The notes below the pieces were generated by a model, which did not search any database, was not told the origin of the DNA, and saw only the letters and a program-made list of their open reading frames with translations. A stretch of DNA of 11,990 nucleotides from a virus. Its lineage: Duplodnaviria > Heunggongvirae > Uroviricota > Caudoviricetes. Positions 1 through 11,990 of this stretch are shown here, in pieces. The position numbers were made by a program, and so were the translations under genes. Location: the IMG/VR virus record IMGVR_UViG_2744054628_000002, positions 1 through 11,990 of that record; one strand, 5' to 3'. The stretch's first letter is position 1. Each line of letters starts with the position of its first letter.

Positions 1-61
1 CAGAGTGGGCGCGAGACGTTACGACAACTGGAAACTAAAACTGGGGCAACAAGATATCTGA
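1..61 (+). CDS. 3' end of an upstream gene (partial, runs off window start); product unknown
   Basis: Open frame from position 2 ending ...RVGARRYDNWKLKLGQQDI, with TGA at 59-61 overlapping the ATG at 61-63 (ATGA-type coupling). Too short to identify. Confidence 0.3.
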   Translation, partial: RVGARRYDNWKLKLGQQDI

Positions 62-357
62 TGAGCGTTCTGGCCAGAGAGCTGGTTGCCAGTGGCGATG
101 TATACAACTCTGGTTACGGGTTATTCCCGTCTGAACAGGCGCGTAAGGACTGGCAAAATGCCCGTAAAAAGCTCTCAAGGGCAAAGCTGAAGAAACCATC
201 TGCGGTTGATCCGGACCTTATCTGGTCATTACCTGATGGAGAAATACGTCGTTACGACAGGCGTCATAATATGATTTGTACTGAGTGTCGTAAAAGCGAA
301 GTTATGCAGCGCATATTGTCGTTTTATCAGGGTGATGTTCGGTATTTATTGAAGTGA
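61..357 (+). CDS. hypothetical small prophage early-region protein, 98 aa
   Basis: ATG 61 to TGA 355-357; start overlaps the upstream stop; basic, Cys-containing C-terminal half (ICTECRK). Family not recognised from sequence alone. Confidence 0.55.
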   Translation: MSVLARELVASGDVYNSGYGLFPSEQARKDWQNARKKLSRAKLKKPSAVDPDLIWSLPDGEIRRYDRRHNMICTECRKSEVMQRILSFYQGDVRYLLK

Positions 358-488
358 CGAGATTAAAGTGCATTAGTTCAGATGCAAATTGACATTTTGT
401 GGCACAGGGTAGAGCTAGCGTGGTTGTCCGCTTTGTGCCAATAGCGGACATTGCTGGCTCATGGTATGTTAGTTTAAGGAGGCAGGTT

Positions 489-1511
489 ATGCCCTGTATT
501 TCGCTGTGGTATAATAGTTGCGCAATTGATACAAGGGAGCGTTACATCGTGAAAATTGTTTTCGAGGTTAATGGAAAGAAAGTTCCACTAAAATCTTTAA
601 AATACATAAGCAAAAAAGATCAACTCGAAGTAATGAAAAACTGGTTCTTTGAAAACTTTGAAGATCCGGCAAATGCTTGTCCGTATGAAAGTAGAGAAGG
701 TGGCTATGCTTACATATATGGCGGGCCGTATGATGCGAGCGAAGAACTACAATCCATCTTCGGTCAATATGTTAAATCTGAGTATATTGAGGAATTAGTA
801 GATGAATTACAAACACAATGTTTTGACTGGTCTGGAAACTCAAATAATATAGATGATTGGTACGATGATGATATCTACGACGCTGTAACGTCTTCCGGTA
901 ATCCGTATTTAAAATTCATTGATAATATCGATAAAATAAAAAAACTTGCAAAAGATAAAACTGAACAACAGCAAAAAAACCACTTGCTTAGTTTGCTCTA
1001 CACGAATGTTATTACAGCTTTGGAAACGCTTTATGTTGAGCTATTCATTAATTCTATAGAGAAAGATGATGTCTACATAGCCAATTGTATAGAAAAAGGT
1101 AAGACTGAATTTAAAGTAAGCAAAGATATTGCTGCGTTGCCTTTCAAGGGTGAACCCATCGAGAAAATTAGGGGAGAGCTAATCAGGTCAATCAAGGAAC
1201 ACTTGATCAGTGCAAGCTGGCATAGCACTAAAAAGGTAATCGACCGCTATGAAGCTACATTCGATATAAAAGTACAAAAAGACTGTCCGATAGAAGCTAT
1301 TGAATTGGCAACCCTCAATCGAAATCACTTAGTGCATCGTGGTGGAAAGGATAAAGAAGGGAACCTCGTTGTGATTACAGACCAGGATCTTGAAACGCTG
1401 ATTGAAAATGCATCGAACCTGGCAATTATGCTCTACAACAGTTTAAATGTAGCAACGAATAAAACCACCATTTTGCAACCAGATGACAAACCGTTCATTC
1501 ATGAATTTTAA
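489..1511 (+). CDS. cassette protein A, unknown function; C-terminal helical region carries an R-x4-H motif (RNHLVH) compatible with a HEPN-type RNase fold. Start ambiguous: ATG 489, GTG 549, or the ORF-track GTG 399
   Basis: Long ORF ending TAA 1509-1511. ATG 489 is preceded by AAGGAGG (476-482) with a 6-nt spacer; in-frame GTG 549 is preceded by AAGGGAG (533-539). AT-rich and N/K/I/Y-rich, unlike flanking phage genes. RNHLVH is encoded at 1320-1337. I recognise no family beyond this motif. Confidence 0.7.
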   Translation: MPCISLWYNSCAIDTRERYIVKIVFEVNGKKVPLKSLKYISKKDQLEVMKNWFFENFEDPANACPYESREGGYAYIYGGPYDASEELQSIFGQYVKSEYIEELVDELQTQCFDWSGNSNNIDDWYDDDIYDAVTSSGNPYLKFIDNIDKIKKLAKDKTEQQQKNHLLSLLYTNVITALETLYVELFINSIEKDDVYIANCIEKGKTEFKVSKDIAALPFKGEPIEKIRGELIRSIKEHLISASWHSTKKVIDRYEATFDIKVQKDCPIEAIELATLNRNHLVHRGGKDKEGNLVVITDQDLETLIENASNLAIMLYNSLNVATNKTTILQPDDKPFIHEF

Positions 1512-1526
1512 TAGCGCAGGTCATAC

Positions 1527-2528
1527 ATGGATATTCGCACACGAAAGACAAAATTTTTAGAGTCGTTAGATTCAACTGAAGTGATACGCAAAGCAGTAAG
1601 TCTCGCTATAGATTGCATTATTGATAATCATAATAGTAATGAAGATACCCCCTTAGTTATTACCAGCTATGATGATCTCTGTAGAATCCAGGTGCTAAAT
1701 TATGTACAGGAGTTTTGCGAAGCTGCATTCCCTGATATGGATGAATATTACTTTAGTCCTAACATACTTCGCATCAACGGCAAGACTAGTGAAGAAGCTT
1801 GTATTAACTTAATTAAACTCTTAAGAAGTACAAAAGGCATGCTATTCTGGTCCGATGCCCCATCGTGGTTCGCTAGCCTCCCCGACGGATTATTCCATGT
1901 TGTTAACATTGATCAAAAAATCGTTACTCGCGGCCTTAATAAGAAAAACTCTAAGCCGACAATAATCAATAAAGATTACAGTGTAGATACACTACTATCA
2001 GAGCTATTTTTGAATGGCGCACACATGGAGCAACCCAACGTACACAACGTTTCTGAGGGAAACATGAAGTTCTATGATGAATGCCATGCTGGATTAATCA
2101 GACCAATACCCGCTCCAATAGGCGCGTCATACGATGAAGAGATCACAATTAATTCTCCAGATTGGCAAAAGCTCGCGTGTGTAGCTTTACGCCGCTATCA
2201 GTCGAAGGAATGTCATGACGGAATGCAATGGGATACAACCGATCATGGTTGGACTGATGTAATCGCGTATCCATTCGTCGAAGAAATACAATCAATGGAT
2301 AATAGTGGTTATCGACAATGTTTAGTTGGGCTGGTCACAATAAACAATTCAAATGCAAATTCTCCGTACCTATCTACCGTTTGGATACATCCATTTTATC
2401 GCAGGAGAGGGTTATTAAGTAAGTTATGGCCAAAATTACAAGAGTTATATGGAAGTAACTTCGAAATTGAGCGACCTAATGAAAATATGAAAGCATTTCT
2501 GAAAAGTGCGAAACACGCAGATTACTAA
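1527..2528 (+). CDS. cassette protein B, 333 aa; unknown N-terminal domain plus C-terminal region with a GNAT-acetyltransferase-like motif A (IHPFYRRRGLLSKLW)
   Basis: ATG 1527 lies 15 nt after the stop of protein A, same strand, implying an operon; stop TAA 2526-2528. The motif at about 2385-2429 resembles the acetyl-CoA-binding V-x-P-x-x-R-x-x-G-x-G/A segment of GNAT enzymes, with L in place of the second G. AT-rich like gene A. Confidence 0.75.
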   Translation: MDIRTRKTKFLESLDSTEVIRKAVSLAIDCIIDNHNSNEDTPLVITSYDDLCRIQVLNYVQEFCEAAFPDMDEYYFSPNILRINGKTSEEACINLIKLLRSTKGMLFWSDAPSWFASLPDGLFHVVNIDQKIVTRGLNKKNSKPTIINKDYSVDTLLSELFLNGAHMEQPNVHNVSEGNMKFYDECHAGLIRPIPAPIGASYDEEITINSPDWQKLACVALRRYQSKECHDGMQWDTTDHGWTDVIAYPFVEEIQSMDNSGYRQCLVGLVTINNSNANSPYLSTVWIHPFYRRRGLLSKLWPKLQELYGSNFEIERPNENMKAFLKSAKHADY

Positions 2529-2941
2529 TTTATGAATCAGTCTGTGGAGTTAGAGTTGGTGTGAACAAGTAGGGTAAGAGCCTCAACGTGATGCTATGCC
2601 GACCTGCTCCCTGAGAATTCACACAGAAGGCTGCTAGCAATGTCTGCAGATCGCTCAAAGCGGACTAGAAGGTTAGCTTGCGTCGGACTTGGCGTATTTA
2701 AAGAAGTGCTGGTGGTGACTGGTTGTTGTGTTCCATTTCTACAGAACAAAATCACAGAAACTATACCCAATAGTTGTATCTCATCAATGATGAGACAGCC
2801 TCATATTTATCAGGACTGGTGTACGTCCAATACAGGAGGTTGTCGTGCTGGTTCTCAAATGTGCGCTGGCTATTGCAGCTGTAATGGCAATTTATTGTCT
2901 TGCTGTTGTTCTTATGGATCGCTTTTCTGATTGATTTTATA

Positions 2942-2970
2942 TTGGCGAGGTAACGGGAGTTAAGTAGAAT
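2942..2970 (+). promoter_or_regulatory. candidate sigma70 promoter for hok mRNA (-35 TTGGCG 2942-2947, 17-nt spacer, -10 TAGAAT 2965-2970)
   Basis: Hexamers and spacing read directly. The predicted start (~2977) falls at GGTGCTTGAGGCTATCTG, which resembles the conserved 5' end of hok-family mRNAs as I recall it (GGCGCTTGAGGCTTTCTG in plasmid R1). Confidence 0.45.
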
Positions 2971-3145
2971 GGCTGCGGGTGCTTGAGGCTATCTGTCTCA
3001 GGCATGAACACCAAAGGCAGATAGAGAAAAGCCCCAGTTAACATTACGCGTCCTGCAAGACGCTTAACATTAATCTGAGGCTCAATCTATGAACGGCAAA
3101 TCTAGGTTAGCCTCTTACGTGCCGAAAGGCAAGGAGAAGCAGGCT

Positions 3146-3301
3146 ATGAAGCAGCAAAAGGCGATGTTAATCGCCCTGATCGTCATCTGTTTAACCGTCA
3201 TAGTGACGGCACTGGTAACGAGGAAAGACCTCTGCGAGGTACGAATCCGAACCGGCCAGACGGAGGTCGCTGTCTTCACAGCTTACGAACCTGAGGAGTA
3301 A
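3146..3301 (+). CDS. hok: Hok-family type I toxin (small membrane host-killing peptide), 51 aa
   Basis: Translation MKQQKAMLIALIVICLTVIVTALVTRKDLCEVRIRTGQTEVAVFTAYEPEE matches the Hok/Gef/RelF(HokD) family as I recall it: single TM helix and conserved C-terminal AVFxAYE. ATG 3146; AAGGAG at 3131-3136. The ORF-track start 3089 is an in-frame upstream ATG. Confidence 0.9.
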   Translation: MKQQKAMLIALIVICLTVIVTALVTRKDLCEVRIRTGQTEVAVFTAYEPEE

Positions 3302-3368
3302 GAGACCAGGCGGGGGAGAATCCCTCGCCACCTCTGATGTGTCAGGCATCCTCAACGCACCCGCACTT

Positions 3369-3395
3369 AACCCGCTTCGGCGGGTTTTGTTTTTT
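3369..3395 (+). terminator. intrinsic terminator at the 3' end of the hok transcript
   Basis: AACCCGC (3369-3375), TTCG loop, GCGGGTT (3380-3386), then TTGTTTTTT. Lies inside the 5' part of ORF-track ORF 3339..3746, arguing that the downstream gene starts later. Confidence 0.7.
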
Positions 3396-3467
3396 CCTAG
3401 CATTCTGGTTTACAATTCGCACGCCAGCCTGAACAACTGGCACCTGCTGCGCCAGCAGAGACAACCG

Positions 3468-3746
3468 ATGGCGCACGATACCAAATTACACAATTCTGAT
3501 GATTCTGCCGTCTTTGCCAGCAGGCACGGGCGGCGTTCCCGCACTTTCAAATCTGACTGGTTCCAGCATCCCCCATGCACTGAAGAACAGGCCGAGTGGC
3601 TAATTCAGTGCTACCGCAGACACGGATACGAGATTAAGAAAGCCCTCAGCCTCGATTATCGTCACTGGATAATCTCCGTCAGGCTTCCTTACTCCGAGCG
3701 CCCACCGCGTCCGTCCCGCACATTCCAGCAACGCATCTGGAGGTAA
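3468..3746 (+). CDS. small basic prophage protein, Rem-like by position (between hok and the DUF968 gene, as rem is in Qin); function unknown
   Basis: First ATG (3468) downstream of the hok terminator in the 3339..3746 frame; stop TAA 3744-3746 sits inside the RBS-start spacer of the next gene. Positional analogy is from memory of the K-12 Qin map. Confidence 0.5.
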   Translation: MAHDTKLHNSDDSAVFASRHGRRSRTFKSDWFQHPPCTEEQAEWLIQCYRRHGYEIKKALSLDYRHWIISVRLPYSERPPRPSRTFQQRIWR

Positions 3747-3747
3747 C

Positions 3748-4797
3748 GTGCGGGTATTACTTCGACCTGTTCTGGTACCGGAACTCGGGCTGGTGATCGT
3801 TAAGCCGGGCCGTGAATCCATGCCGGTATTCCACAATACCCGGGTACTGGTGGAGCCGGAACCGAAAAGCATGCGTAATCTGCCGTCCGGGGTTGTTCCT
3901 GCCGTTCGCCAGCCGCTAGTGGAAGACAAAACATTGCTGCCGTTTTTCAGTAACGCACGGGTGATTCGTGCTGCTGGTGGTGCTGGTGCATTGTCTGACT
4001 GGCTGTTGCGCCATATTAAATCCTGCCAGTGGCCACACGGCGATTATCATCACAGCGAAACCGTCATTCACCGTTATGGTACCGGCGCAATGGTGTTGTG
4101 CTGGCACTGCGACAACCAGCTGCGTGACCAGACATCCGAATCACTCGAGCAACTTGCTCATCAAAACCTGTCAGCATGGATGATTGACGTCATCGGTCAC
4201 GCAATAAGCGGTACGCAGGAGCGTGAATTATCTTTGGCTGAATTATCCTGGTGGGCGGTCCGCAATCAGGTGGCGGACGCGCTACCGGAAGCGGTATTAC
4301 GTCGTTCGCTGGGGTTGCGTGCAGAAAAAATCCGCTCAATGTACCGTGAAAGCGACATCGTACCGGGAGAGCAGACCGCCACCAGCATACTGAAACAGCG
4401 CACAAAAAATCTTGCGCCGCTGCCTCACGCCCACCAGCAACAGAACCCACCACAGGAAAAGACGGTGGTCAGCATTGCCGTTGATCCTGAGTCTCCGGAA
4501 TCTTTCATGAAACGACCTAAACGTCGCCGCTGGGTTAACGAGAAATACACACGCTGGGTGAAGACACAGCCGTGTGCGTGTTGTAGTAAGCCAGCCGACG
4601 ATCCCCATCACCTGATTGGTCATGGTCAGGGCGGAATGGGAACAAAATCCCACGATATTTTCACGCTACCGCTGTGTCGGGAGCATCACAACGAGCTTCA
4701 TGCGGATCCGCTGGCGTTCGAAGAAAAGCATGGTTCTCAGGTTGATTTAATTTTTCGTTTTCTTGATCACGCCTTTGCAACCGGCGTGCTTGGGTAA
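3748..4797 (+). CDS. DUF968/YdfU-like prophage protein with C-terminal Cys/His-rich HNH-like motif, 349 aa
   Basis: GTG 3748 preceded by GGAGG (3739-3743); C-terminus has CACC...HHLIGHGQGGMGTKSHD...CREHHNELH. Size, sequence and position upstream of rusA and Q match YdfU-type proteins as I recall them. Confidence 0.8.
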   Translation: MRVLLRPVLVPELGLVIVKPGRESMPVFHNTRVLVEPEPKSMRNLPSGVVPAVRQPLVEDKTLLPFFSNARVIRAAGGAGALSDWLLRHIKSCQWPHGDYHHSETVIHRYGTGAMVLCWHCDNQLRDQTSESLEQLAHQNLSAWMIDVIGHAISGTQERELSLAELSWWAVRNQVADALPEAVLRRSLGLRAEKIRSMYRESDIVPGEQTATSILKQRTKNLAPLPHAHQQQNPPQEKTVVSIAVDPESPESFMKRPKRRRWVNEKYTRWVKTQPCACCSKPADDPHHLIGHGQGGMGTKSHDIFTLPLCREHHNELHADPLAFEEKHGSQVDLIFRFLDHAFATGVLG

Positions 4798-4809
4798 AAG
4801 GGGTTACTG

Positions 4810-5184
4810 ATGCGTATAGAGTTTGTTTTGCCTTACCCGCCGACGGTGAACACCTACTGGCGACGTCGTGGCAGCACATATTTTGTATCAAAAGCCGGTG
4901 AGCGTTATCGCCGTGATGTGGCGCTTATTGTTCGCCAGCAGCGACTGAAATTAAATCTGTCCGGAAGGCTGGCGATCAGGATTATTGTGGAGCCACCGGA
5001 TAAGCGTCGTCGCGACCTGGACAATATCCTGAAAGCACCGCTGGATGCGCTGACGCATGCGGGAGTGTTAATGGACGATGAGCAGTTTGATGAAATCAAT
5101 ATCGTTCGTGGTCAGCCAGTATCTGGTGGACGTCTGGGGGTGAAGATTTACCCCATAATGCATGAAGAGCAGGTCAAAAAATGA
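4810..5184 (+). CDS. rusA: RusA-family Holliday junction resolvase (endodeoxyribonuclease), 124 aa
   Basis: Conserved RusA signatures: N-terminal PPTVNTYW and catalytic-region RRRDLDN. AAGGGG RBS 4797-4802. Stop TGA 5182-5184 overlaps the Q start. Confidence 0.93.
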   Translation: MRIEFVLPYPPTVNTYWRRRGSTYFVSKAGERYRRDVALIVRQQRLKLNLSGRLAIRIIVEPPDKRRRDLDNILKAPLDALTHAGVLMDDEQFDEINIVRGQPVSGGRLGVKIYPIMHEEQVKK

Positions 5185-6002
5185 AACTGGAAGATTTACC
5201 GAAATACTACTCCCCAAAATCCCCTTGCCTGACCGATGCATCGGCCTCAACGTCAAAAGATGCGCTGAGTATCACTGATGTGATGGCCGCGCAGGGCATG
5301 ACACAGAATCGGGCTGAGATGGGGTTTTCTGCGTTCCTGGGGAAAATGGGCATCAGTATGAATGACAGGGCGCGGGCAACAGAATTACTGGCAGATTATG
5401 CACTCAGTCGGTGCGATCGTGTGGCGGCGTTGAGAAAACTTCCGGCAGAAATAAAACCGGTAGTGATGCGCATTATGGCTTCGTACGCTTTTGAGGATTA
5501 TGCCCGCAGCGCAGCGAGTAAAAAGCAGTGCCCTTGTTGCTATGGGGAAAAATTTATTGAAAGCGTAGTTTTTACAAACAAGGTCCAGTATCCGGATGGT
5601 AAGCCGCCGGTATGGGCAAAGTGTACGAAAGGTGTGTATCCGTCTTACTGGGAAGAATGGAAAAAAGTCAGGGAGGTGGTAAAAGTTGCCTGTCCGGAGT
5701 GTGGCGGAAAGGGTGAGGTTTCCACCGCCTGTAAGGATTGCCGTGGGCGTGGTGTCGCCATTCACCGTGAAGAGTCGGTAAAACGTGGTATGCCTGTTAT
5801 CAGAGACTGCCAGCGTTGTGGTGGTCGTGGCTATGAAAGACTACCATCAACGGAGGTATTTAATGCTATATGCGAGGTGACAAACCAGATAACACGCGCG
5901 TCATGGGAAAAAACAGTTAAGAAATTCTATGATGCGCTGGTGACCCGGTTTGATATTGAAGAAGCATGGGCTGAGCGGCAGTTAAAAAAGGTAACTAGGT
6001 AA
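5181..6002 (+). CDS. Q: late-gene antitermination protein Q (lambda Q family) with an expanded Cys-rich zinc-binding region, 273 aa
   Basis: N-terminus (KYYSPKSP...DVMAAQGM) and C-terminus (SWEKTVKKFYDALV...VTR) parallel lambda Q as recalled; central CPECGGKG, CKDCRGRG and CQRCGGRG repeats. A pR'-like promoter follows immediately. Confidence 0.88.
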   Translation: MKLEDLPKYYSPKSPCLTDASASTSKDALSITDVMAAQGMTQNRAEMGFSAFLGKMGISMNDRARATELLADYALSRCDRVAALRKLPAEIKPVVMRIMASYAFEDYARSAASKKQCPCCYGEKFIESVVFTNKVQYPDGKPPVWAKCTKGVYPSYWEEWKKVREVVKVACPECGGKGEVSTACKDCRGRGVAIHREESVKRGMPVIRDCQRCGGRGYERLPSTEVFNAICEVTNQITRASWEKTVKKFYDALVTRFDIEEAWAERQLKKVTR

Positions 6003-6007
6003 CAAGG

Positions 6008-6047
6008 TTGATTTTTCCGGAATCTGTGGTAAATTCGTCATAACGAT
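6008..6047 (+). promoter_or_regulatory. pR'-like late promoter with qut-like initial transcribed region
   Basis: -35 TTGATT (6008-6013), 16-nt spacer, TGg extension (6027-6029), -10 TAAATT (6030-6035); AACGATGGG at 6042-6050 resembles the lambda pR' pause-inducing element (AACGATGGG) as I recall it. Sits directly after Q. Confidence 0.5.
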
Positions 6048-6082
6048 GGGCGTTTTATGCCTGGCGTTAGAAGAGTTTCTAC

Positions 6083-6106
6083 AACCCGCCGCTGAGCGGG
6101 TTTTTT
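6083..6106 (+). terminator. tR'-like intrinsic terminator downstream of the late promoter
   Basis: AACCCGC (6083-6089), 6-nt loop, GCGGGTT (6096-6102) running into TTTTTT (6101-6106), then ATT. Confidence 0.6.
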
Positions 6107-6145
6107 ATTGCGAAATTAATTACGGACCGTTATTATTCTGCTCCC

Positions 6146-6221
6146 GGCCCTTTAGCTCAGTGGTGAGAGCGAGCGACTCATAATCGCCAGGTCGCTGGTT
6201 CAAATCCAGCAAGGGCCACCA
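6146..6221 (+). tRNA. tRNA with CAT anticodon (Met or lysidine-type Ile2), 76 nt, CCA encoded; probably the ileX/ileZ-like tRNA that lambdoid and Stx phages carry after Q
   Basis: Hand-folded cloverleaf: acceptor GGCCCTT/AAGGGCC, D-arm GCTC-AGTGGTGA-GAGC, anticodon loop CTCATAA (CAT at 6179-6181), T-arm GCTGG-TTCAAAT-CCAGC, discriminator A, CCA 6219-6221. Close to E. coli ileX as recalled. Confidence 0.85.
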
Positions 6222-6321
6222 TCACAAACCGCCATTAGCTTATCAGGAAGAGCAGACGACACGATAACAGGGTTGTTGGTGCGGGGGCGGGTCCCCGATG
6301 GCGGTCCATTATCGGTATTCA

Positions 6322-6366
6322 GCGTTGTTAGCTCAGCCGGACAGAGCAATTGCCTTCTAAGCAGCT
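6322..6366 (+). tRNA. tRNA-Arg(TCT)-like 5' portion (acceptor 5' strand, D-arm, anticodon arm); 3' half degenerate, so probably a tRNA pseudogene or fragment
   Basis: GCGTTGT-TA-GCTCAGCCGGACAGAGC-A-ATTGC-CTTCTAA-GCAGC gives a canonical D-arm and a TCT anticodon loop, but I find no T-arm (GGTTGCACTCC in place of GGTTCGAATCC) and no 3' strand complementary to GCGTTGT. Confidence 0.35.
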
Positions 6367-6731
6367 GTGGTTGCACTCCTGTTGTTTCTGGTGGTGATGG
6401 TGGACTTCAGCAGCCGGATAATGTCGGTGCTGTCTGATGGTGTTTTGGTGGCGGGTGTGTGGTTGTTGCTTTCCCGTTGCTGAAAAAGAAAGCATCAGGC
6501 GATTAGCAGGGTATCAGTTACCCGTTGAAATTTTTAAATACCTCACAATTCCACAGCTTGATGATTGTCTGGCTGCCGGAGAATTTGTTAAAAATTACAT
6601 CGCATGGTGAATCCCCCTGTGCGGAGGGGTAATCAGCGAGTAGGTATATGGGATAATCGCGGATTCAGGTGCTGGTACTGAATTCACCGGGAGGCACCCG
6701 GCACCATGCAATGGCACATAGCGCCACTCTC

Positions 6732-6759
6732 CAGCCCCTCTCCGGAGGGGCTGTTTATA
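6732..6759 (+). terminator. GC-rich hairpin followed by T-rich tract; candidate intrinsic terminator
   Basis: 9-bp stem CAGCCCCTC / GAGGGGCTG with TCCG loop (6732-6753), then TTTATATTGATTTTG. U-tract is interrupted, so strength uncertain. Confidence 0.4.
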
Positions 6760-6787
6760 TTGATTTTGTCAGATGTGAGTAAACTCC

Positions 6788-7123
6788 TTATGGACTTTGT
6801 TGTTTTAGTCCATAAGGACATATTTGCAGAATGCAACGGTTATTAAAGCATTCATTCAATACGTTATCTGTATTTGTAGGGCATTCCTGGCTGTTTTTGA
6901 TTAAATTCCAGAATGTTTTATTGAATGGTACTACGTTGTAAATGGTTACAGGTAGCACTTTGTTATTGAGCATGATGCCTGTGTGAGTCAGTGTAAATAT
7001 ACTTTCAGGAGGTAAGAAAGCATCCGATTGATACCAGATTATTAATTTTATTTTACTCCATATGACTGAAAAAGATATTCCGCATGATGGCTGGATAACT
7101 GTATCAATCACAATCCACTTCAT
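6788..7123 (-). CDS. hypothetical Cys-containing protein in AT-rich moron, 111 aa, no recognisable family
   Basis: ATG at 7123 (- strand) preceded by AGGA with ~6-nt spacer; stop at 6788-6790. Opposite strand to all flanking phage genes, AT-rich, and sits in the Q-to-S cargo slot. No signal peptide evident. Confidence 0.6.
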
Positions 7124-7382
7124 TTACTTTCCTTGTTTATGCCTTGCTGGTGATGTTCTGAAAAGTATAAATGATATTTTTGAATTAAACCATAGAGCAG
7201 AATTATTTTTCTGATGTTGTTTATTGTTTATTTAAATACAGGGTGGTTTATATCTCGTCTTGTAGTTTATCCATGCATATCTGCTTGATAATCAGGTTTT
7301 TATTTAAGGTATGGTTTTGTGTTTTTTCTGTATTACATGTCAGGTATTTTAAAGAATTATTTTTCAGATGGTGGAAAGAACC

Positions 7383-7571
7383 ATGGCATTTAAACACTAT
7401 GATGTTGTCAGGGCGGCGCCGCCGTCAGATCTTGCGGAAAAGCTGACACATAAACTGAAAGAGGGCTGGCAGCCGTTTGGTAGTCCGGTGGCCATAACCC
7501 CTTATACCCTGATGCAGGCGATTGCAGCAGAAGGTGATGTGGTGGTCAGCGGTGCAACTGAGCCGGAGTGA
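7383..7571 (+). CDS. small conserved lambdoid-prophage protein found upstream of lysis genes (possibly DUF1737-like); function unknown
   Basis: ORF 7368..7571; internal ATG 7383 has a better purine-rich RBS (GGTGGAAAGA). N-terminus MAFKHYDVVRAAPPSDLAEKL resembles small proteins I recall at this position; family name is tentative. Confidence 0.5.
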   Translation: MAFKHYDVVRAAPPSDLAEKLTHKLKEGWQPFGSPVAITPYTLMQAIAAEGDVVVSGATEPE

Positions 7572-7814
7572 TACTACGTCATCGTACTGGCCCGGCATTC
7601 CAGGCCATAAAAGACAGTCTGGCAGTGGGACTAAATGCACTGACGCTGACGGATATTACCAAAAATGCAACGTATGGCGTTGAGATAGAAAGTCTGGTGC
7701 TGGAGATAAATGCACCGGCATCATCATAAAAAGTGAGCCAGTCAAATGGAAGGTATCGTTAAACTCACCGGTAGTGTCAGTGGGTCGTCTGAGACGCTTG
7801 CATGAGTTATCAGA

Positions 7815-7843
7815 GCCATCAGTAGTTAACTGGTGGCTTTTTT
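7815..7843 (+). terminator. intrinsic terminator immediately upstream of the holin gene
   Basis: 8-bp stem GCCATCAG / CTGGTGGC (one G-T wobble), 7-nt loop, then TTTTTT (7838-7843). Lies inside the GTG-initiated extension of ORF 7774..8094, supporting the ATG 7879 start. Confidence 0.55.
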
Positions 7844-7878
7844 ATTGTTGTCAGCTTCCGGATAACGGGAGACGGGGT

Positions 7879-8094
7879 ATGGACCAGATGGAAAAAATCA
7901 CAACAGGTGTGTCATACACCACGTCAGCGGTGGGAACGGGCTACTGGTTCCTGCAGTTGCTGGACAGGGTTTCCCCGTCTCAGTGGGCGGCAATAGGCGT
8001 GCTGGGGAGTCTGCTGTTTGGGCTGCTGACATATCTGACTAACCTGTATTTCAAAATCAGAGAGGACCGTCGTAAGGCTGCACGGGGAGAGTAA
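7879..8094 (+). CDS. S: class II holin / pinholin (phage 21 S-like), 71 aa, with dual-start motif Met1...Met4
   Basis: [15 protein letters not shown]...[40 protein letters not shown]: two TM segments plus charged tail, similar to S21 as recalled. GGGAGA RBS 7867-7872, 6-nt spacer. Confidence 0.85.
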
Positions 8095-8098
8095 TTCA

Positions 8099-8449
8099 AT
8101 GACTCAAAACTATGAACTGATTGTGAAAGGGATCCGCAATTTTGAGAATAAAGTTACGGTAACTTTAGCGTTACGGGACAAAAAACGCTTTGACGGTGAA
8201 ATTTTTGACCTGGACATCTCGCTGGACCGTGTTGAAGGTGCCGCGCTGGAGTTTTATGAGGCAGCAGCCAGAATGAGCATCAGACAGGTCTTCCTGGATG
8301 TTGCTGCCGGGTTATGTGAAGGGGATGAGCAGTCGCCGGAAAAGCGCCCCGTAATTTTAGAGGCGCAGAATGTATGGATAACCTACAAAGGAAAGCTACC
8401 GGGAAGAATTACTGGTTCTCTGAAGACTCCTCCGGAATCACAACCTTAA
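8099..8449 (+). CDS. hypothetical protein between holin and endolysin (YdfR-like by position and size; possibly DUF1327), 116 aa
   Basis: ATG 8099 follows holin stop TAA 8092-8094 by 4 nt. Positional match to ydfR between essQ and rrrQ in Qin, from memory. No catalytic motif recognised. Confidence 0.65.
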   Translation: MTQNYELIVKGIRNFENKVTVTLALRDKKRFDGEIFDLDISLDRVEGAALEFYEAAARMSIRQVFLDVAAGLCEGDEQSPEKRPVILEAQNVWITYKGKLPGRITGSLKTPPESQP

Positions 8450-8512
8450 GTCACTGACCGGAACAGATAAACCTGTCCGTGGGCAGAAACCGATAAATCC
8501 TGATAAATATCC

Positions 8513-9046
8513 ATGAACGCAAAAATCAGATACGGCCTGTCGGCTGCCGTTCTGGCACTGATTGCCGTCGGTGCGCCCGCGCCTGATATTCTCGACCAGT
8601 TTCTGGATGAAAAAGAAGGTAACCACACAACGGCATACCGCGATGGGTCCGGCATCTGGACCATCTGTCGGGGTGCCACGATGGTGGATGGAAAACCCGT
8701 TTTTCCCGGTATGAAACTGTCGAAGGAAAAATGCGACCAGGTCAACGCCATTGAGCGTGATAAGGCGCTGGCATGGGTGGAGCGCAATATTAAAGTACTA
8801 CTGACCGAACCACAAAAAGCGGGTATAGCGTCATTCTGTCCCTATAACATTGGCCCCGGTAAGTGTTTCCCGTCGACGTTTTATAAGCGGCTGAATGCCG
8901 GTGATCGTAAGGGCGCATGCGAGGCGATTCGCTGGTGGATAAAAGATGGTGGGCGCGATTGCCGCATACGTTCAAATAACTGCTATGGACAGGTTATTCG
9001 TCGTGACCAGGAAAGCGCATTAGCCTGTTGGGGGATAGAGCAGTGA
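8513..9046 (+). CDS. R: SAR endolysin (T4-lysozyme-like muramidase, phage 21 R / RrrQ-like), 177 aa
   Basis: Gly/Ala-rich hydrophobic N-terminal signal-anchor-release segment ([16 protein letters not shown]), then E-x8-D-x5-T catalytic pattern ([16 protein letters not shown]) and C-terminal ALACWG, as in R21-type lysozymes. Confidence 0.9.
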
Positions 9047-9504
9047 GCAGAGTCGCCGCGATTATTTATGCTTTGGTTATCTGCATCATCGTCTGCCTGT
9101 CGTGGGCGGTCAATCATTACCGTGATAACGCCATCGCCTACAAAGAACAGCGTGATAAAAAAGTCAGTGAGCTGAAGCAGGCGATCGCCACTATCGCTGA
9201 CATGCAGCAGCGTCAGCGTGATGTTGCTGCGCTCGATGCAAAATACACGAGGGAGTTAGCTGATGCGAAAGCTGAAAATGATGCTCTGCGTGATGATGTT
9301 GCCGCTGGTCGTCGTCGGTTGCACATCAAAGCAGTCTGTCAGTCAGTGCGTGAAGCCACCACCGCCTCCGGCGTGGATAATGCAGCCACCCCCCGACTGG
9401 CAGACACCGCTGAACGGGATTATTTCACCCTCAGAGAGAGGCTGATCACTATGCAAAAACAACTGGAAGGAACCCAGAAGTATATTAATGAGCAGTGCAG
9501 ATAG
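9043..9504 (+). CDS. Rz: i-spanin Rz, 153 aa
   Basis: GTG 9043 overlaps the R stop (TGA 9044-9046) and follows GGGGGA. Product [31 protein letters not shown]... is near-identical to lambda Rz as recalled. The ORF-track start 9028 is TTG inside R. Confidence 0.9.
9263..9445 (+). CDS. Rz1: o-spanin Rz1 lipoprotein, 60 aa, embedded in the +1 frame of Rz
   Basis: [24 protein letters not shown]...[29 protein letters not shown]: lipobox VVGC, proline-rich; matches lambda Rz1 as recalled. GGGAG RBS 9251-9255. Confidence 0.9.
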
Positions 9505-9535
9505 AGCTGCCCATATCGATGGGCAACTCATGCAA

Positions 9536-9829
9536 TTATTGTGAGCAATACACACGCGCTTCCAGTGGAGTATAAATGCCTAAAGTAATAAAACCGAGAA
9601 ATCCATTTACGAATGTTTGCTGGGTTTCTGTTTTAACAACATTTTCTGCGCCGCCACAAATTTTGGCTGCATCAACAGTTTTCTCCTGTCCAATTCCCGA
9701 AACGAAGAAATGATGGGTGATGGTTTCCTTTGGTGTTACTGCTGTCGGTTTGTTTCCAACAGTAAACGTCTGTTGAGCACATCCTGTAATAAGCATTGCC
9801 AGAGCGGCAGAAAACAACATTTTTTTCAT
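9536..9829 (-). CDS. bor: Bor lipoprotein (serum-resistance / Iss family), 97 aa
   Basis: From ATG at 9829 (- strand): MKKMLFSAALAMLITGCAQQTFTV...LEARVYCSQ with lipobox ITGC; near-identical to lambda Bor as recalled. The ORF-track start at 9877 is an upstream extension. Convergent with Rz. Confidence 0.9.
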   Translation of the reverse strand: MKKMLFSAALAMLITGCAQQTFTVGNKPTAVTPKETITHHFFVSGIGQEKTVDAAKICGGAENVVKTETQQTFVNGFLGFITLGIYTPLEARVYCSQ

Positions 9830-10212
9830 CTTATTATCCTGCATTGTTAAAAACGGCAGAATCCTATGTGACAACAATTAAACGATAGTTAAATGGATTG
9901 ATGAAAATTAAAACTATATAGGTGGATGCTCAGCCTATCGGAGGTAGTCAGGATTTGAATGTCAGTCTGTTGTCGGCATTCTGGCAATGCAATTTGGATA
10001 AAGCGGGGATTAAAAAGATAGAGGCGAGCCGGTCAGGTAGAAATGAATCAGGCTCAAAGTGAAGCGGAAAAGGTCTGTGGCACAAGCTGATGCAGCCATA
10101 ATTACAGCCTGATGATTTGTGGAATGAAACATGTTGAACCTCCTTAATTGATGTTATTCGAGTGATGAAGGCATTCTGTCCTTCTATAGTGTCCAGTAAA
10201 TCAAACAGGAAA

Positions 10213-10234
10213 CTTGTCCAACGTGTTGGACAAG
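10213..10234. repeat. perfect 10-bp inverted repeat with 2-bp spacer (CTTGTCCAAC GT GTTGGACAAG), candidate operator
   Basis: Arms are exact reverse complements; additional TGTCC-containing half-site-like copies lie just upstream (~10177-10196). About 90 bp upstream of the G start. Confidence 0.5.
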
Positions 10235-10325
10235 CCTCTCCATTAGTGAGTTGTATTGATCACAACTCTACAAAGAATTCATTACTGGGTAGATGAAAAT
10301 AGTTTCACTATGAATGGAGGAGGCT

Positions 10326-10748
10326 ATGTCGGTGGCTTCTTCATTGGAGTACCGTCAGTTAATGAGGATAGATGTGATGACTAAAAATATCCGTAATCTG
10401 GCACTGGCAGCGATGTCGGGGTTTCGCCATAAAACTGTTGATGTGCCTGAATGGGAAGGGGCAACGGTTGTATTACGGGAACCTTCTGCAGAAGCCTGGT
10501 TGCGCTGGCAGGAGATCGTTAAAGCAAAAGATGATGAGACACCGTTATCCGTTGCGGAGCTCGCCCGCCGAAATCTGGAAGCGGATGTTGAACTGTTCAT
10601 CGATGTTCTGTGTGATACCGGACTGCAACCTGTATTTTCAGTGGATGATCGTGAACAGGTGATTGCCGTGTATGGCCCGGTGCATGCGCGGCTTCTTCGG
10701 CAGTCTCTGGAACTGATCAGTGATGCCGGCGAGGTTAAAAAAAAGTAG
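10326..10748 (+). CDS. G: tail assembly chaperone G, 140 aa
   Basis: ATG 10326 with GGAGG RBS (10316-10320); ORF ends EVKKK-TAG with the slippery heptamer A_AAA_AAG (10739-10745) just before the stop. The ORF-track start 10314 is an upstream in-frame ATG without a good RBS. Confidence 0.75.
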   Translation: MSVASSLEYRQLMRIDVMTKNIRNLALAAMSGFRHKTVDVPEWEGATVVLREPSAEAWLRWQEIVKAKDDETPLSVAELARRNLEADVELFIDVLCDTGLQPVFSVDDREQVIAVYGPVHARLLRQSLELISDAGEVKKK

Positions 10749-11050
10749 CGCTTCCGGGGATGCGTTTTCTGATGATGCTGGCGCTCAGGATGGGGCGCAC
10801 ATTGTCAGAGTTACGCCGGGAAATGTCCGCATCAGAAATCATGATGTGGGCAGAGTTTGACAGGTTCAGCCCGCTGGGGGACGAACGGGCTGATATCCGG
10901 GCTGCCCAGATTGTTTCAGCTGTTTACGGTGCGCAGGGGGTCAAAGTGCCACTGAATGATGCGCTTCTTCAGTGGGAGAAGGAGCAGACAGAAGGCGTAT
11001 CAGATCCATTTGCTGGACTGGAAAACGCGCTTTTAATAGTGTCTCAGTGA
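10739..11050 (+). CDS. T: T segment of the G-T tail assembly chaperone fusion, reached by -1 programmed ribosomal frameshift at A_AAA_AAG
   Basis: The -1 frame is open from the slip site through ...VALPGMRFLMMLALRMG... (ORF 10760..11050) to TGA 11048-11050. The fusion product would span 10326..11050. Confidence 0.7.
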   Translation, partial: KKVALPGMRFLMMLALRMGRTLSELRREMSASEIMMWAEFDRFSPLGDERADIRAAQIVSAVYGAQGVKVPLNDALLQWEKEQTEGVSDPFAGLENALLIVSQ

Positions 11051-11058
11051 GTCAACAT

Positions 11059-11990
<932 letters not shown>

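Follow-up and report, generated by a model that had tools for sequence, protein, structure and literature searches.

The DNA examined here is a stretch of 11,990 nucleotides (hereafter the window) from a virus of the Caudoviricetes (positions 1 to 11,990 of the IMG/VR record IMGVR_UViG_2744054628_000002), in which a hotspot of variable gene content is embedded in the conserved backbone of a Rac-like prophage. To the left of the hotspot lies the 3' part of a DUF977 (LygF/Ren-like) gene of the prophage early-right operon (61-357, plus strand; Pfam DUF977, E=8e-17), annotated as DUF977 in NZ_OZ547155.1 and homologous in phages Evi, Tritos and mEp460. It is followed by an intergenic stretch (358-425, plus strand), nearly invariant in four phages with different cargo, which holds TTGACA (389-394) and, at 400-405, TGGCAC, the reverse complement of the spacer of the L site described below. 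A 2.2-kb cassette with two genes on the plus strand follows. Gene A (549-1511) has a GTG start, assigned at 549 by PGAP too, and encodes 320 aa with a HEPN/RES N-terminal domain 1 and a C-terminal HEPN domain with the motif RNHLVH, an instance of the Rx4-6H motif in a C-terminal helical domain; R278 and H283 are invariant in 24 sequences, and Pfam PF18870 is weak in A itself, while PF18870, found on many of them, and PF18735 are precomputed on homologs. Gene B (1527-2528), the partner of A, encodes 333 aa with a weak GNAT-like C-terminus (Pfam Acetyltransf_1, E=9e-4, below the cutoff). Searches of A and B against PADLOC, NCBIfam and Pfam gave only weak hits. The A+B pair is kept in Serratia and in Aeromonas, and a gene A homolog sits in the P2 gpA-ogr hotspot of a Yersinia prophage.

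The Inverted Repeat and the Extended –10 Element

A preliminary description of the sequence drew attention to an 8-bp inverted repeat upstream of gene A, to a consensus extended –10 element between two candidate starts (ATG 489 and GTG 549), each with its own Shine-Dalgarno (SD) sequence, and to a weaker TTGACA further upstream. All these observations are confirmed: TGTCCGCT (425-432) and AGCGGACA (443-450) are separated by 10 nt, TGGTATAAT is at 507-515, the two start codons are in frame and 60 nt apart, SD-like AAGGAGG lies at 476-482 and GGGAG at 535-539, and no usable –10 follows TTGACA. By count alone, however, neither signal is significant. The window contains 15 perfect 8-bp inverted repeats with a loop of 3-20 nt, whereas 20 mononucleotide shuffles averaged about 2.8 with a maximum of 10, so that such repeats are not rare here, and TGNTATAAT occurs once, with 0.49 expected and at least one occurrence in 76 of 200 shuffles. 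What makes both real is conservation: the repeat is invariant in arm and loop across prophages that carry different cargo and sits exactly at the homology breakpoint, and the –10 element is kept at a fixed distance from the GTG. Chance, that is, a palindrome and a –10-like nonamer without function in AT-rich intergenic DNA, is thus already contradicted by the comparative data across cargos, contexts and genera, and can be practically discounted.

The extended –10 TGgTATAAT (507-515, plus strand) is very likely a working promoter for gene A, with a predicted transcription start near 522. It is conserved as TGGTACAAT in Serratia and as TGATACAAT in Aeromonas, each 33 nt before the GTG and each with the TGn, while A. 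taiwanensis has TATAGT about 2 nt downstream. A simple promoter scan did not list it because its –35 (TTATGC, 487-492) is poor, matching 2 of 6 positions. A weaker extended –10-like element, TGGTATGTT (462-470, plus strand), belongs to the first copy of a 13-nt direct repeat (462-474 and 507-519) and has positional counterparts, TGCTATGAT in Yersinia and TGCTAATCT in the sequence designated L150; a conserved inward promoter at every L end is nevertheless not supported, since TGNTANNNT was found in 7 of 51 L ends versus 6 of 42 R ends.

Of the two alternatives put forward in the preliminary description, namely that the cassette may be made from two transcripts and as two protein isoforms or that the longer N-terminus may not be translated, the data favour the second, and two isoforms have no comparative support. 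All 23 aligned homologs begin at the residue matching GTG 549, and the GTG itself is kept in Serratia, Aeromonas and Yersinia, preceded in all three, at the place of the GGGAG (535-539, plus strand), by AAGGAG or GGAG. In the 97%-identical Serratia copy the counterpart of ATG 489 is 61 nt upstream of the GTG and therefore out of frame, whereas Aeromonas has an in-frame TGA inside the –10 region. In addition, the strong SD and ATG 489 overlap GGAGGCAGGTTA (478-489, plus strand), an inner end-motif which recurs as GGGAGCAGGTCA 28-30 nt inside the inner arm in 5 of 51 L ends and 9 of 42 R ends, against a background of 2.2%, and whose counterpart at the right end of the cassette is GGGAGCAGGTCG (2600-2611, minus strand; in L116, an identical cassette, offset 30, 1 mismatch). 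They are thus more likely part of the cassette end than a start site. The annotation of gene A is corrected accordingly to GTG 549, and the 340-aa form called in some genomes is probably an artefact.

Paired Sites at the Borders of the Cassette

The inverted repeat forms the two arms of a 24-bp site, L (426-449, plus strand), with the outer arm GTCCGCT (426-432), tt (433-434), the spacer GTGCCA (435-440), at (441-442) and the inner arm AGCGGAC (443-449). A partner site, R (2642-2665, plus strand), with the inner arm GTCTGCA (2642-2648), ga, the spacer TCGCTC (2651-2656), aa and the outer arm AGCGGAC (2659-2665), closes the cassette. L and R have the same arms, different 6-bp spacers and mutually inverted orientation, so that each cassette carries imperfect terminal inverted repeats of about 26-36 bp. 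The outer 15 bp are constant (GTCCGCTTTGTGCCA on the left and GTCCGCTTTGAGCGA on the reverse-complemented right), and are followed by 2 nt, mostly purines, by a cargo-specific inner arm AGCGGAC and often by RTT. The same layout, two inverted arms around a short asymmetric spacer, holds in 51 distinct L ends and 42 distinct R ends, and a scan found 2 sites in the window versus about 0.05 in shuffles. Some arms are badly degenerate, for example ATATAGTC, GGCTGTT and TTCCACA, but the spacer is the best-conserved part even where the arms decay.

The sites coincide with the borders of homology. Prophages with other cargo share the window from 1 to 452/453 and again from 2639/2651, whereas a Serratia grimesii island shares only 426-2665, at 97% identity, and has RadC, CbeA, CbtA and DUF4942 genes on one side of the cassette and a McrB-like gene on the other. 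The switch from constant to variable sequence falls at the inner edge of the spacer in 27 cargo types. In total, 120 viral contigs carrying the R core hold 27 cargo configurations of 0.8-6.7 kb between L and R, on either strand, and six of ten cargo proteins tested match PADLOC families, including PD-T7-1, PD-T7-3, AbiH, PDC-S39 and PDC-S06. The same cargo was found in different surroundings in three cases, the window's cassette, a 1917-bp cargo and a 1522-bp cargo. On the other hand, co-variation between the two cargo-proximal arms was seen only in the cassettes designated L076, Tritos and L105, and no inverted repeat-like sites were found around the Aeromonas A+B copies, while the Yersinia locus has a degenerate L-like site and an R-spacer-like 12-mer which overlaps the stop codon. 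A synthetic query joining the outer parts of L and R found no empty site in 5426 E. coli genomes, the only hit being a 242-bp deletion remnant of one cargo, and a search of a plasmid collection returned nothing beyond mislabelled chromosomes.

These data bear on the proposal of the preliminary description that the repeat is an operator or an RNA hairpin, an interpretation which, taken together with that of the promoter and starts, is only partly supported. As RNA the 34-nt hairpin folds at –12.9 kcal/mol (z = –2.7), and with its flanks (412-460) at –26.8 kcal/mol (z = –4.0); it lies in a transcribed intergenic region of the early-right operon, where it could regulate gene A, or insulate or process the early-operon transcript around foreign cargo, and the 2 nt next to the inner arm could extend the stem through A-T or G-T pairs. 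However, the site is not specific to gene A, as it is found upstream of at least 27 unrelated cargo configurations and also outside any phage operon; the long 412-460 stem depends on cargo-specific bases and is not general; and arm variants are not compensatory, since both C-A mismatches and G-T pairs occur and some sites have lost the hairpin. The repeat is not an intrinsic terminator, as it is followed by TTGCTGGCTC and not by a U-tract, and a terminator scan found nothing overlapping it; Rfam scans at gathering and permissive thresholds gave nothing at 300-700. A pseudoknot between this repeat and a second inverted repeat (400-406 with 434-440) is possible in principle, but was rejected because a 2-nt connecting loop is sterically implausible. 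A role dedicated to gene A is not supported, and a regulatory one is very unlikely.

An alternative view is that the cassette is a non-autonomous transposon (a MITE-like or mobile-insertion-cassette element), the terminal inverted repeats of which would be recognised by a DDE transposase encoded elsewhere. In favour of this, the L end and the reverse complement of the R end match over about 36 bp in the window's cassette, and the unit from repeat to repeat is found in Serratia without other homology. By contrast, no target-site duplication was found in the flanks in E. coli and Serratia or in the array linkers, no transposase is associated (the IS genes in some cargos are unrelated insertions), and neighbouring units in arrays are separated by a fixed linker of about 18 nt. 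Moreover, the outer 15 bp stay with the context and diverge independently of the cargo (13 of 15 in Serratia versus 97% identity for the cargo), which fits hybrid recombination sites and not transposon ends. A long target duplication of a palindrome was also rejected, because L and R match as inverted and not as direct repeats (19 of 26 versus 16 of 26 positions). The transposon reading, too, is therefore considered very unlikely.

Arrays and Linkage to a Recombinase Gene

The sites also form tandem arrays, in which the R-to-L gap is 16-18 nt in 16 cases and about 660 nt, the length of a recombinase module, in 14 cases. Adjacent sites were counted as LR 102, RL 44, LL 45 and RR 19, so that alternation of L and R dominates but is imperfect. 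In such arrays, between an R-type and an L-type half-site, lies the gene of a 200-aa protein of the Phage_integrase family (Pfam PF00589, E=2e-17), in whose translation the tyrosine recombinase catalytic motifs can be read (LRGCDL, HSMRRT, LLGH and VRY), and homology to another array breaks within about 1 nt of the outer edge of the GTGCCA spacer in the recombinase-adjacent site. The gene is present in 924 of 5426 E. coli genomes; nearly all of the 8000 candidates scored, a lower bound on the total, passed E<=1e-10, and the 120 best are 77-98% identical and come from many Gammaproteobacteria. The protein gave no hit among solved structures and matched no curated family.

Outside phages, sites recur in islands of CFT073, Serratia, Proteus and Idiomarina, in several instances next to the recombinase gene (for example CFT073 WP_001305361.1). 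The CFT073 island has perfect L and R sites plus a composite of R, an 18-nt linker and L, Proteus has arrays, and in Idiomarina the recombinase is followed by L, 6.9 kb of cargo and a perfect R. Overall, 26 sites were found in 121 kb of these loci versus 0.4 in shuffles. Downstream of recombinase homologs, 18 of 28 distinct regions carry spacer + NN + AGCGGAC, an L-type half-site, and in distant homologs (55-76% identity) the spacer changes to CGGCCA or GGGCCA while the layout is kept. The link between recombinase and sites is by position only, and most prophages with L and R sites, this window included, encode no such recombinase.

Proposed Mechanism of Cassette Exchange

Taken together, the data suggest, with reasonable though not full confidence, that the inverted repeat is the pair of arms of a core-type site-specific recombination site forming the left border of an exchangeable cargo cassette. 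In this view, L could not recombine productively with R because their spacers differ, but L could pair with an L site, and R with an R site, on another molecule. Two such exchanges, cointegrate formation at one pair of sites and then resolution at the other, would replace one cargo with another, as proposed for Acinetobacter dif modules and as used in engineered recombinase-mediated cassette exchange. The likely enzyme is the widespread 200-aa tyrosine recombinase, which would have to act in trans. The cassette would carry its own expression signals, so that genes A and B could be expressed from the repressed prophage. The architecture of the sites, the positions of the breakpoints, the recurrence with many cargos and in unrelated contexts, the physical linkage to the recombinase gene and the conservation of promoter and start codon rest on direct sequence comparison, whereas binding, cleavage and catalysis by that recombinase, the two-step exchange pathway and the transcription start near 522 are inferences.

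A different possibility is that L and R are passive linker homologies, short shared stretches at module borders through which the phage's own relaxed recombinases (RecET or Red-like) or RecA would swap cargo by homologous recombination, without a dedicated enzyme. Rac-like prophages carry exonuclease/recombination genes, among them a 3'-5' exonuclease gene, most hotspots have no small recombinase nearby, Red and RecET can use arms of about 35-50 nt, and between related phages ordinary recombination in the long flanking homology would move cassettes without any site. Passive linkers, however, need not be palindromic, yet here two arm copies surround a 6-bp spacer, in two spacer versions mirrored at the two ends; the conservation of the spacer, the breakpoints at its edges, the occurrence of the sites in non-phage islands of several genera next to a tyrosine recombinase gene and the change of spacer along with the recombinase clade also speak against this reading, which is considered unlikely but less so than the transposon or the operator.

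Relation to Known Systems

The closest parallel is found in the dif modules of Acinetobacter plasmids (PMC13141974), in which accessory-gene modules are bounded by short, inversely oriented sites built as arm, 6-bp spacer and arm, which alternate in orientation along arrays, and modules are replaced one for one where the spacers on each side match; here, too, the spacer is 6 bp and the orientation inverse, but alternation is not strict. The sites described here bear no resemblance to dif, however: the arms GTCCGCT and AGCGGAC are unlike the listed pdif arms, there is no TTATGTTAAAT XerD arm, the two arms are copies of one another, and the two site types differ by spacer and not by arm order. 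Furthermore, a dedicated 200-aa recombinase gene is embedded in the arrays, instead of the host XerC/XerD, and the hosts are prophage hotspots and chromosomal islands of Enterobacterales and other Gammaproteobacteria.

As in integrons, a tyrosine recombinase gene lies directly next to a primary site and is followed by an array of interchangeable cassettes bounded by palindromic sites, with cargo rich in defence and accessory genes. The recombinase is not an IntI-type integrase, though, as it is about 120 aa shorter and scores 17.6 and 17.2 bits with the NCBIfam integron integrase models, against cutoffs of 435 and 265. The sites are of a 24-bp double-strand type and not attC hairpins of 57-141 bp with RYYYAAC and GTTRRRY cores (no GTTRRRY is present), each cassette has one at both ends, and cassettes are often multigene, lie in either orientation and carry their own promoters.

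In the R64 shufflon the core of the sfx sites recognised by Rci is 5'-GTGCCAA-3' (PMC4176322), and the window's L site reads GTGCCAA at 435-441, although the consensus of the family is GTGCCAR; sfx sites are likewise asymmetric, with one conserved and one variable arm, and inversely oriented (PMC11852207). The right arm matches only 6 of 12 positions (TCCGGTACGTGG versus TAGCGGACATTG), no evidence of inversion was found, no Rci gene or pilV segments are present, and the cargo consists of whole genes and not of pilV segments. Rci is far larger, at about 384 aa. The site thus does not qualify as an sfx site, and the shared 7-mer may be coincidence.

Finally, the locus resembles phage morons and the prophage defence hotspots of P2 and P4 (Rousset et al., 2022; PMC9122126), in which one fixed position in a conserved backbone holds many alternative, low-GC, self-expressed cargo genes, including validated defence systems. 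For P2 and P4 the mechanism of exchange was left open, with recombination near cos suggested, and no boundary sites were reported there or in a 2026 follow-up, whereas here discrete paired sites and a candidate enzyme are visible. Literature searches on the sequence, the hotspot and the recombinase found no prior description, although a relation to the site-specific recombination in the P2 TO region, reportedly the subject of Nilsson et al. (2004), cannot be excluded.

It is about as likely as not that Rac-like prophages and many gammaproteobacterial islands share an undescribed gene-cassette system, in which a tyrosine recombinase of roughly 200 aa and two heterospecific 24-bp sites (spacers GTGCCA and TCGCTC) would carry out natural recombinase-mediated cassette exchange. 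Were the sites and the recombinase to work as inferred, they would provide a compact natural two-site cassette-exchange tool and a simple sequence rule (L...R) for delimiting cassettes and finding new defence genes, including the uncharacterised HEPN/GNAT-like pair of this window. Above all, since defence hotspots in prophages and satellites are well documented but how their cargo is swapped so precisely has been left open (PMC9122126), they would give a concrete, testable molecular mechanism for the rapid turnover of anti-phage defence genes at a prophage hotspot.

The inverted repeat and the neighboring signals

Each of the elements listed in the preliminary description is present in the sequence at the stated coordinates, and the observation is confirmed. 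The two arms of the inverted repeat, TGTCCGCT (425-432) and AGCGGACA (443-450), are separated by 10 nt, the extended –10 element TGGTATAAT lies at 507-515, and the two candidate starts, ATG 489 and GTG 549, are in frame and are preceded by AAGGAGG (476-482) and GGGAG (535-539), respectively, while TTGACA is found at 389-394. By count, however, none of this is unusual: the window contains 15 perfect 8-bp inverted repeats with loops of 3-20 nt, against about 2.8 in shuffled sequences, and TGNTATAAT is expected 0.49 times. As RNA, the hairpin folds at –12.9 kcal/mol, but it is not followed by a U-tract, a terminator scan did not call it, and no match was found in Rfam.

Two further features surround the repeat. 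TGGCAC (400-405), in the conserved backbone, is the reverse complement of GTGCCA (435-440), the spacer between the arms, and the flanking arms match the site consensus in only 3 of 7 positions each; it could be a relic of an inverted copy of the left-hand site (L, below) or an accessory element. In addition, within 412-460, backbone GAGCTAGCG pairs with TGCTGGCTC of the downstream cassette around the repeat, giving a 57-nt hairpin of –26.8 kcal/mol (z = –4.0).

Genomic context and limits of homology

The window is 100% identical to a Rac-like prophage located next to ompW in E. coli AF44. The local gene order is replication genes, a DUF977 gene (61-357), two hypothetical genes (A, 549-1511, and B, 1527-2528), sok/hokD, DUF968, RusA, Q, a tRNA gene and then lysis genes. 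Genes A and B lie in DNA of low GC content, about 0.29-0.42, against about 0.55 in the backbone. The window also includes the sok antitoxin RNA (2977-3151), hokD (3146-3301), a tRNA annotated as Ile (6146-6218) and the sRNA STnc100 (6572-6762), and the prophage carries iraM (anti-adapter; 6788-7123, minus strand) and iss (increased serum survival; 9536-9829, minus strand) as further cargo genes. In the conserved backbone just upstream of sok/hokD, a small ORF (2846-2932, plus strand) with a strong SD (ACAGGAGG) and a GTG start encodes a 28-aa hydrophobic peptide (MLVLKCALAIAAVMAIYCLAVVLMDRFS); it overlaps a terminator-like hairpin at 2869-2888 and is not annotated in the RefSeq record.

Phages Evi, Tritos and mEp460 carry different genes at this position, and match the window over 1-452/453 and again from 2639/2651. 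By contrast, a Serratia grimesii locus, which is not a lambdoid phage and has RadC, CbeA, CbtA and DUF4942 genes on one side and a McrB-like gene on the other, matches only 426-2665, at 97% identity. The overlap of the two kinds of homology is therefore the repeat itself on the left and, on the right, a related element at 2642-2665, GTCTGCAgaTCGCTCaaAGCGGAC.

Organization of the sites and range of cargo

A scan of viral contigs for the right-hand core gave 120 loci, in which 27 cargo configurations of 0.8-6.7 kb lie between the same two elements. Read from the outside inward, both ends have the same plan, that is, 15 constant bases (GTCCGCTTTGTGCCA on the left, GTCCGCTTTGAGCGA on the right), two bases, mostly purines, and an arm AGCGGAC that varies with the cargo and is often followed by RTT. 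Each element is thus composed of an arm, a 6-bp spacer and an arm, the spacer being GTGCCA in the left site (L) and TCGCTC in the right site (R). The two sites are inverted relative to one another, which gives every cassette imperfect terminal inverted repeats, and in the cassette of the window the similarity runs about 36 bp. A further motif, GGGAGCAGGTCA, lies 28-30 nt inside each end and is found in 5 of 51 L ends and 9 of 42 R ends, against a background of 2.2%. GCTAGC-like hexamers flank both sites on both sides (GCTAGC...L...GCTGGC; GCTAGC...R...GTTAGC), which hints that the functional sites may be longer than 24 bp.

Six of ten cargo proteins tested match PADLOC families, including PD-T7-1, PD-T7-3, AbiH, PDC-S39 and PDC-S06, while others are non-defence genes. 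No empty site was found among the E. coli genomes searched, and the only near-empty hotspot found, in E. coli A20 (locus L145, 1557-1830), is an internal deletion that leaves 242 bp of the 2665-bp AbiH-like cargo between intact L and R sites.

Tandem arrays and a recombinase gene

Larger inserts are tandem arrays of the form L-cargo-R, a linker of about 18 nt, then L-cargo-R. The R-to-L gap is 16-18 nt in 16 cases and about 660 nt in 14. The 18-nt linker (loci L154, the CFT073 sequence, at 9747-9764, the L027 array, and L075) is nearly the same (cttcagctcagtgatatc) in a phage array and in an island of CFT073, and a variant (cttcagcttcgttaacac) occurs elsewhere. The 660-nt linker is a gene for a 200-aa tyrosine recombinase, which matches Pfam Phage_integrase at E = 2e-17 and has the catalytic residues. 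Upstream of the gene lies an R-type half-site, consisting of a variable inner arm, TCGCTC and then constant sequence, while downstream lie the stop codon, a hairpin and then GTGCCA, NN and AGCGGAC-like sequence; homology to another array starts within about 1 nt of the edge of that spacer. The gene is present, at several loci, in 924 of 5426 E. coli genomes. Of at least 8000 candidates, nearly all of the 8000 scored passed E<=1e-10, and the 120 best listed are 77-98% identical and come from many Gammaproteobacteria.

Occurrence outside phages

The same organization is found in non-phage contexts. The aspV-region island of CFT073 has perfect L and R sites around the recombinase gene, plus a composite of R, the 18-nt linker and L. 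Proteus loci show arrays, and in Idiomarina the order is gcvP, recombinase, L, 6.9 kb of cargo and then a perfect R. This Idiomarina cargo (locus L166, 8631-15534) is a two-component system plus an EptA-type phosphoethanolamine transferase, PAP2 and DAGK, a gene set of the kind linked to polymyxin resistance. The sites are about 60-fold over chance (26 against 0.4 in 121 kb).

Of 28 distinct regions downstream of recombinase homologs from viral contigs, 18 keep spacer + NN + AGCGGAC, and distant homologs (55-76% identity) keep the layout but use CGGCCA or GGGCCA as spacer. Three cargos occur with different outer flanks on both sides.

Expression signals of gene A

The preliminary description suggested that the cassette may be made from two transcripts and as two protein isoforms or, alternatively, that the longer N-terminus may not be translated. 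All 23 aligned homologs start MK(I/V)VF..., at the residue corresponding to GTG 549, and GTG itself is the start codon in Serratia, Aeromonas and Yersinia. The 20-aa extension from ATG 489 is found only in E. coli gene calls; in Serratia the ATG is 61 nt upstream of the GTG and therefore out of frame, and in Aeromonas an in-frame TGA lies within the –10 region. The extended –10 element is kept as TGGTACAAT in Serratia and TGATACAAT in Aeromonas, each exactly 33 nt before the GTG, while A. taiwanensis has TATAGT about 2 nt downstream. The likeliest reading is one cassette promoter, a start of transcription predicted near 522 and one 320-aa protein.

A 13-nt direct repeat, TGGTATGTTAGTT (462-474) and TGGTATAATAGTT (507-519), occurs with its copies 45 bp apart, each followed by an SD and a start codon, which suggests an old duplication of the promoter/RBS module. 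The second –10-like element (462-470) and the SD/ATG 489 belong to the cassette-end sequence, and a general inward promoter at L ends is not supported.

Proteins encoded by the cassette

Gene A combines a HEPN/RES N-terminal domain with a C-terminal HEPN carrying RNHLVH, in which the R and H are invariant, whereas gene B is unassigned, with a weak GNAT-like hit. A and B stay together in Serratia and in Aeromonas defence-island contexts, next to TIR and SIR2 genes. Gene A alone sits in a P2-like hotspot in Yersinia, beside an ApeA-like HEPN gene, and in a satellite-like element in E. coli (locus L150), where a 208-aa serine recombinase of the Resolvase family (3553-4179) lies about 0.8 kb upstream of the gene A homolog, itself preceded by a degenerate L-like sequence. 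A role in defence is plausible but remains hypothetical, and PADLOC has no match.

A putative mechanism of cassette exchange

The layout of the sites, their position at the limits of homology, their recurrence with different cargos and their linkage to the recombinase gene are directly observed in the sequences, whereas recombination at the sites, the involvement of the recombinase and the exchange of cargo are inferred from them. The layout is that of core-type tyrosine-recombinase sites. L and R have different spacers, so they should not recombine with each other, while L can be expected to recombine with L, and R with R, on two molecules, and that would replace one cargo by another. This is the route proposed for Acinetobacter dif modules, where modules replace each other when the spacers on each side match (PMC13141974), and it is also the logic of engineered cassette exchange. 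The model has weak points, since there is no recombinase gene in this prophage, alternation of the sites is imperfect (LL 45, RR 19), some arms are degenerate and no empty site was found. The L spacer plus one base equals the R64 shufflon core GTGCCAA (PMC4176322), but the arm matches only 6 of 12 positions, and we treat this as a lead only.

The interpretation in the preliminary description is thus supported in part: the promoter reading holds and the long isoform is unlikely, whereas the reading of the repeat as an operator or RNA hairpin is replaced by that of a boundary recombination site, as inferred here. No prior description of these sites, or of the role of this recombinase, was found in the literature searched, although this is not proof of novelty. 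In its logic the system is a variant of the integron and dif-module cassette systems, but it fails the membership tests for both.
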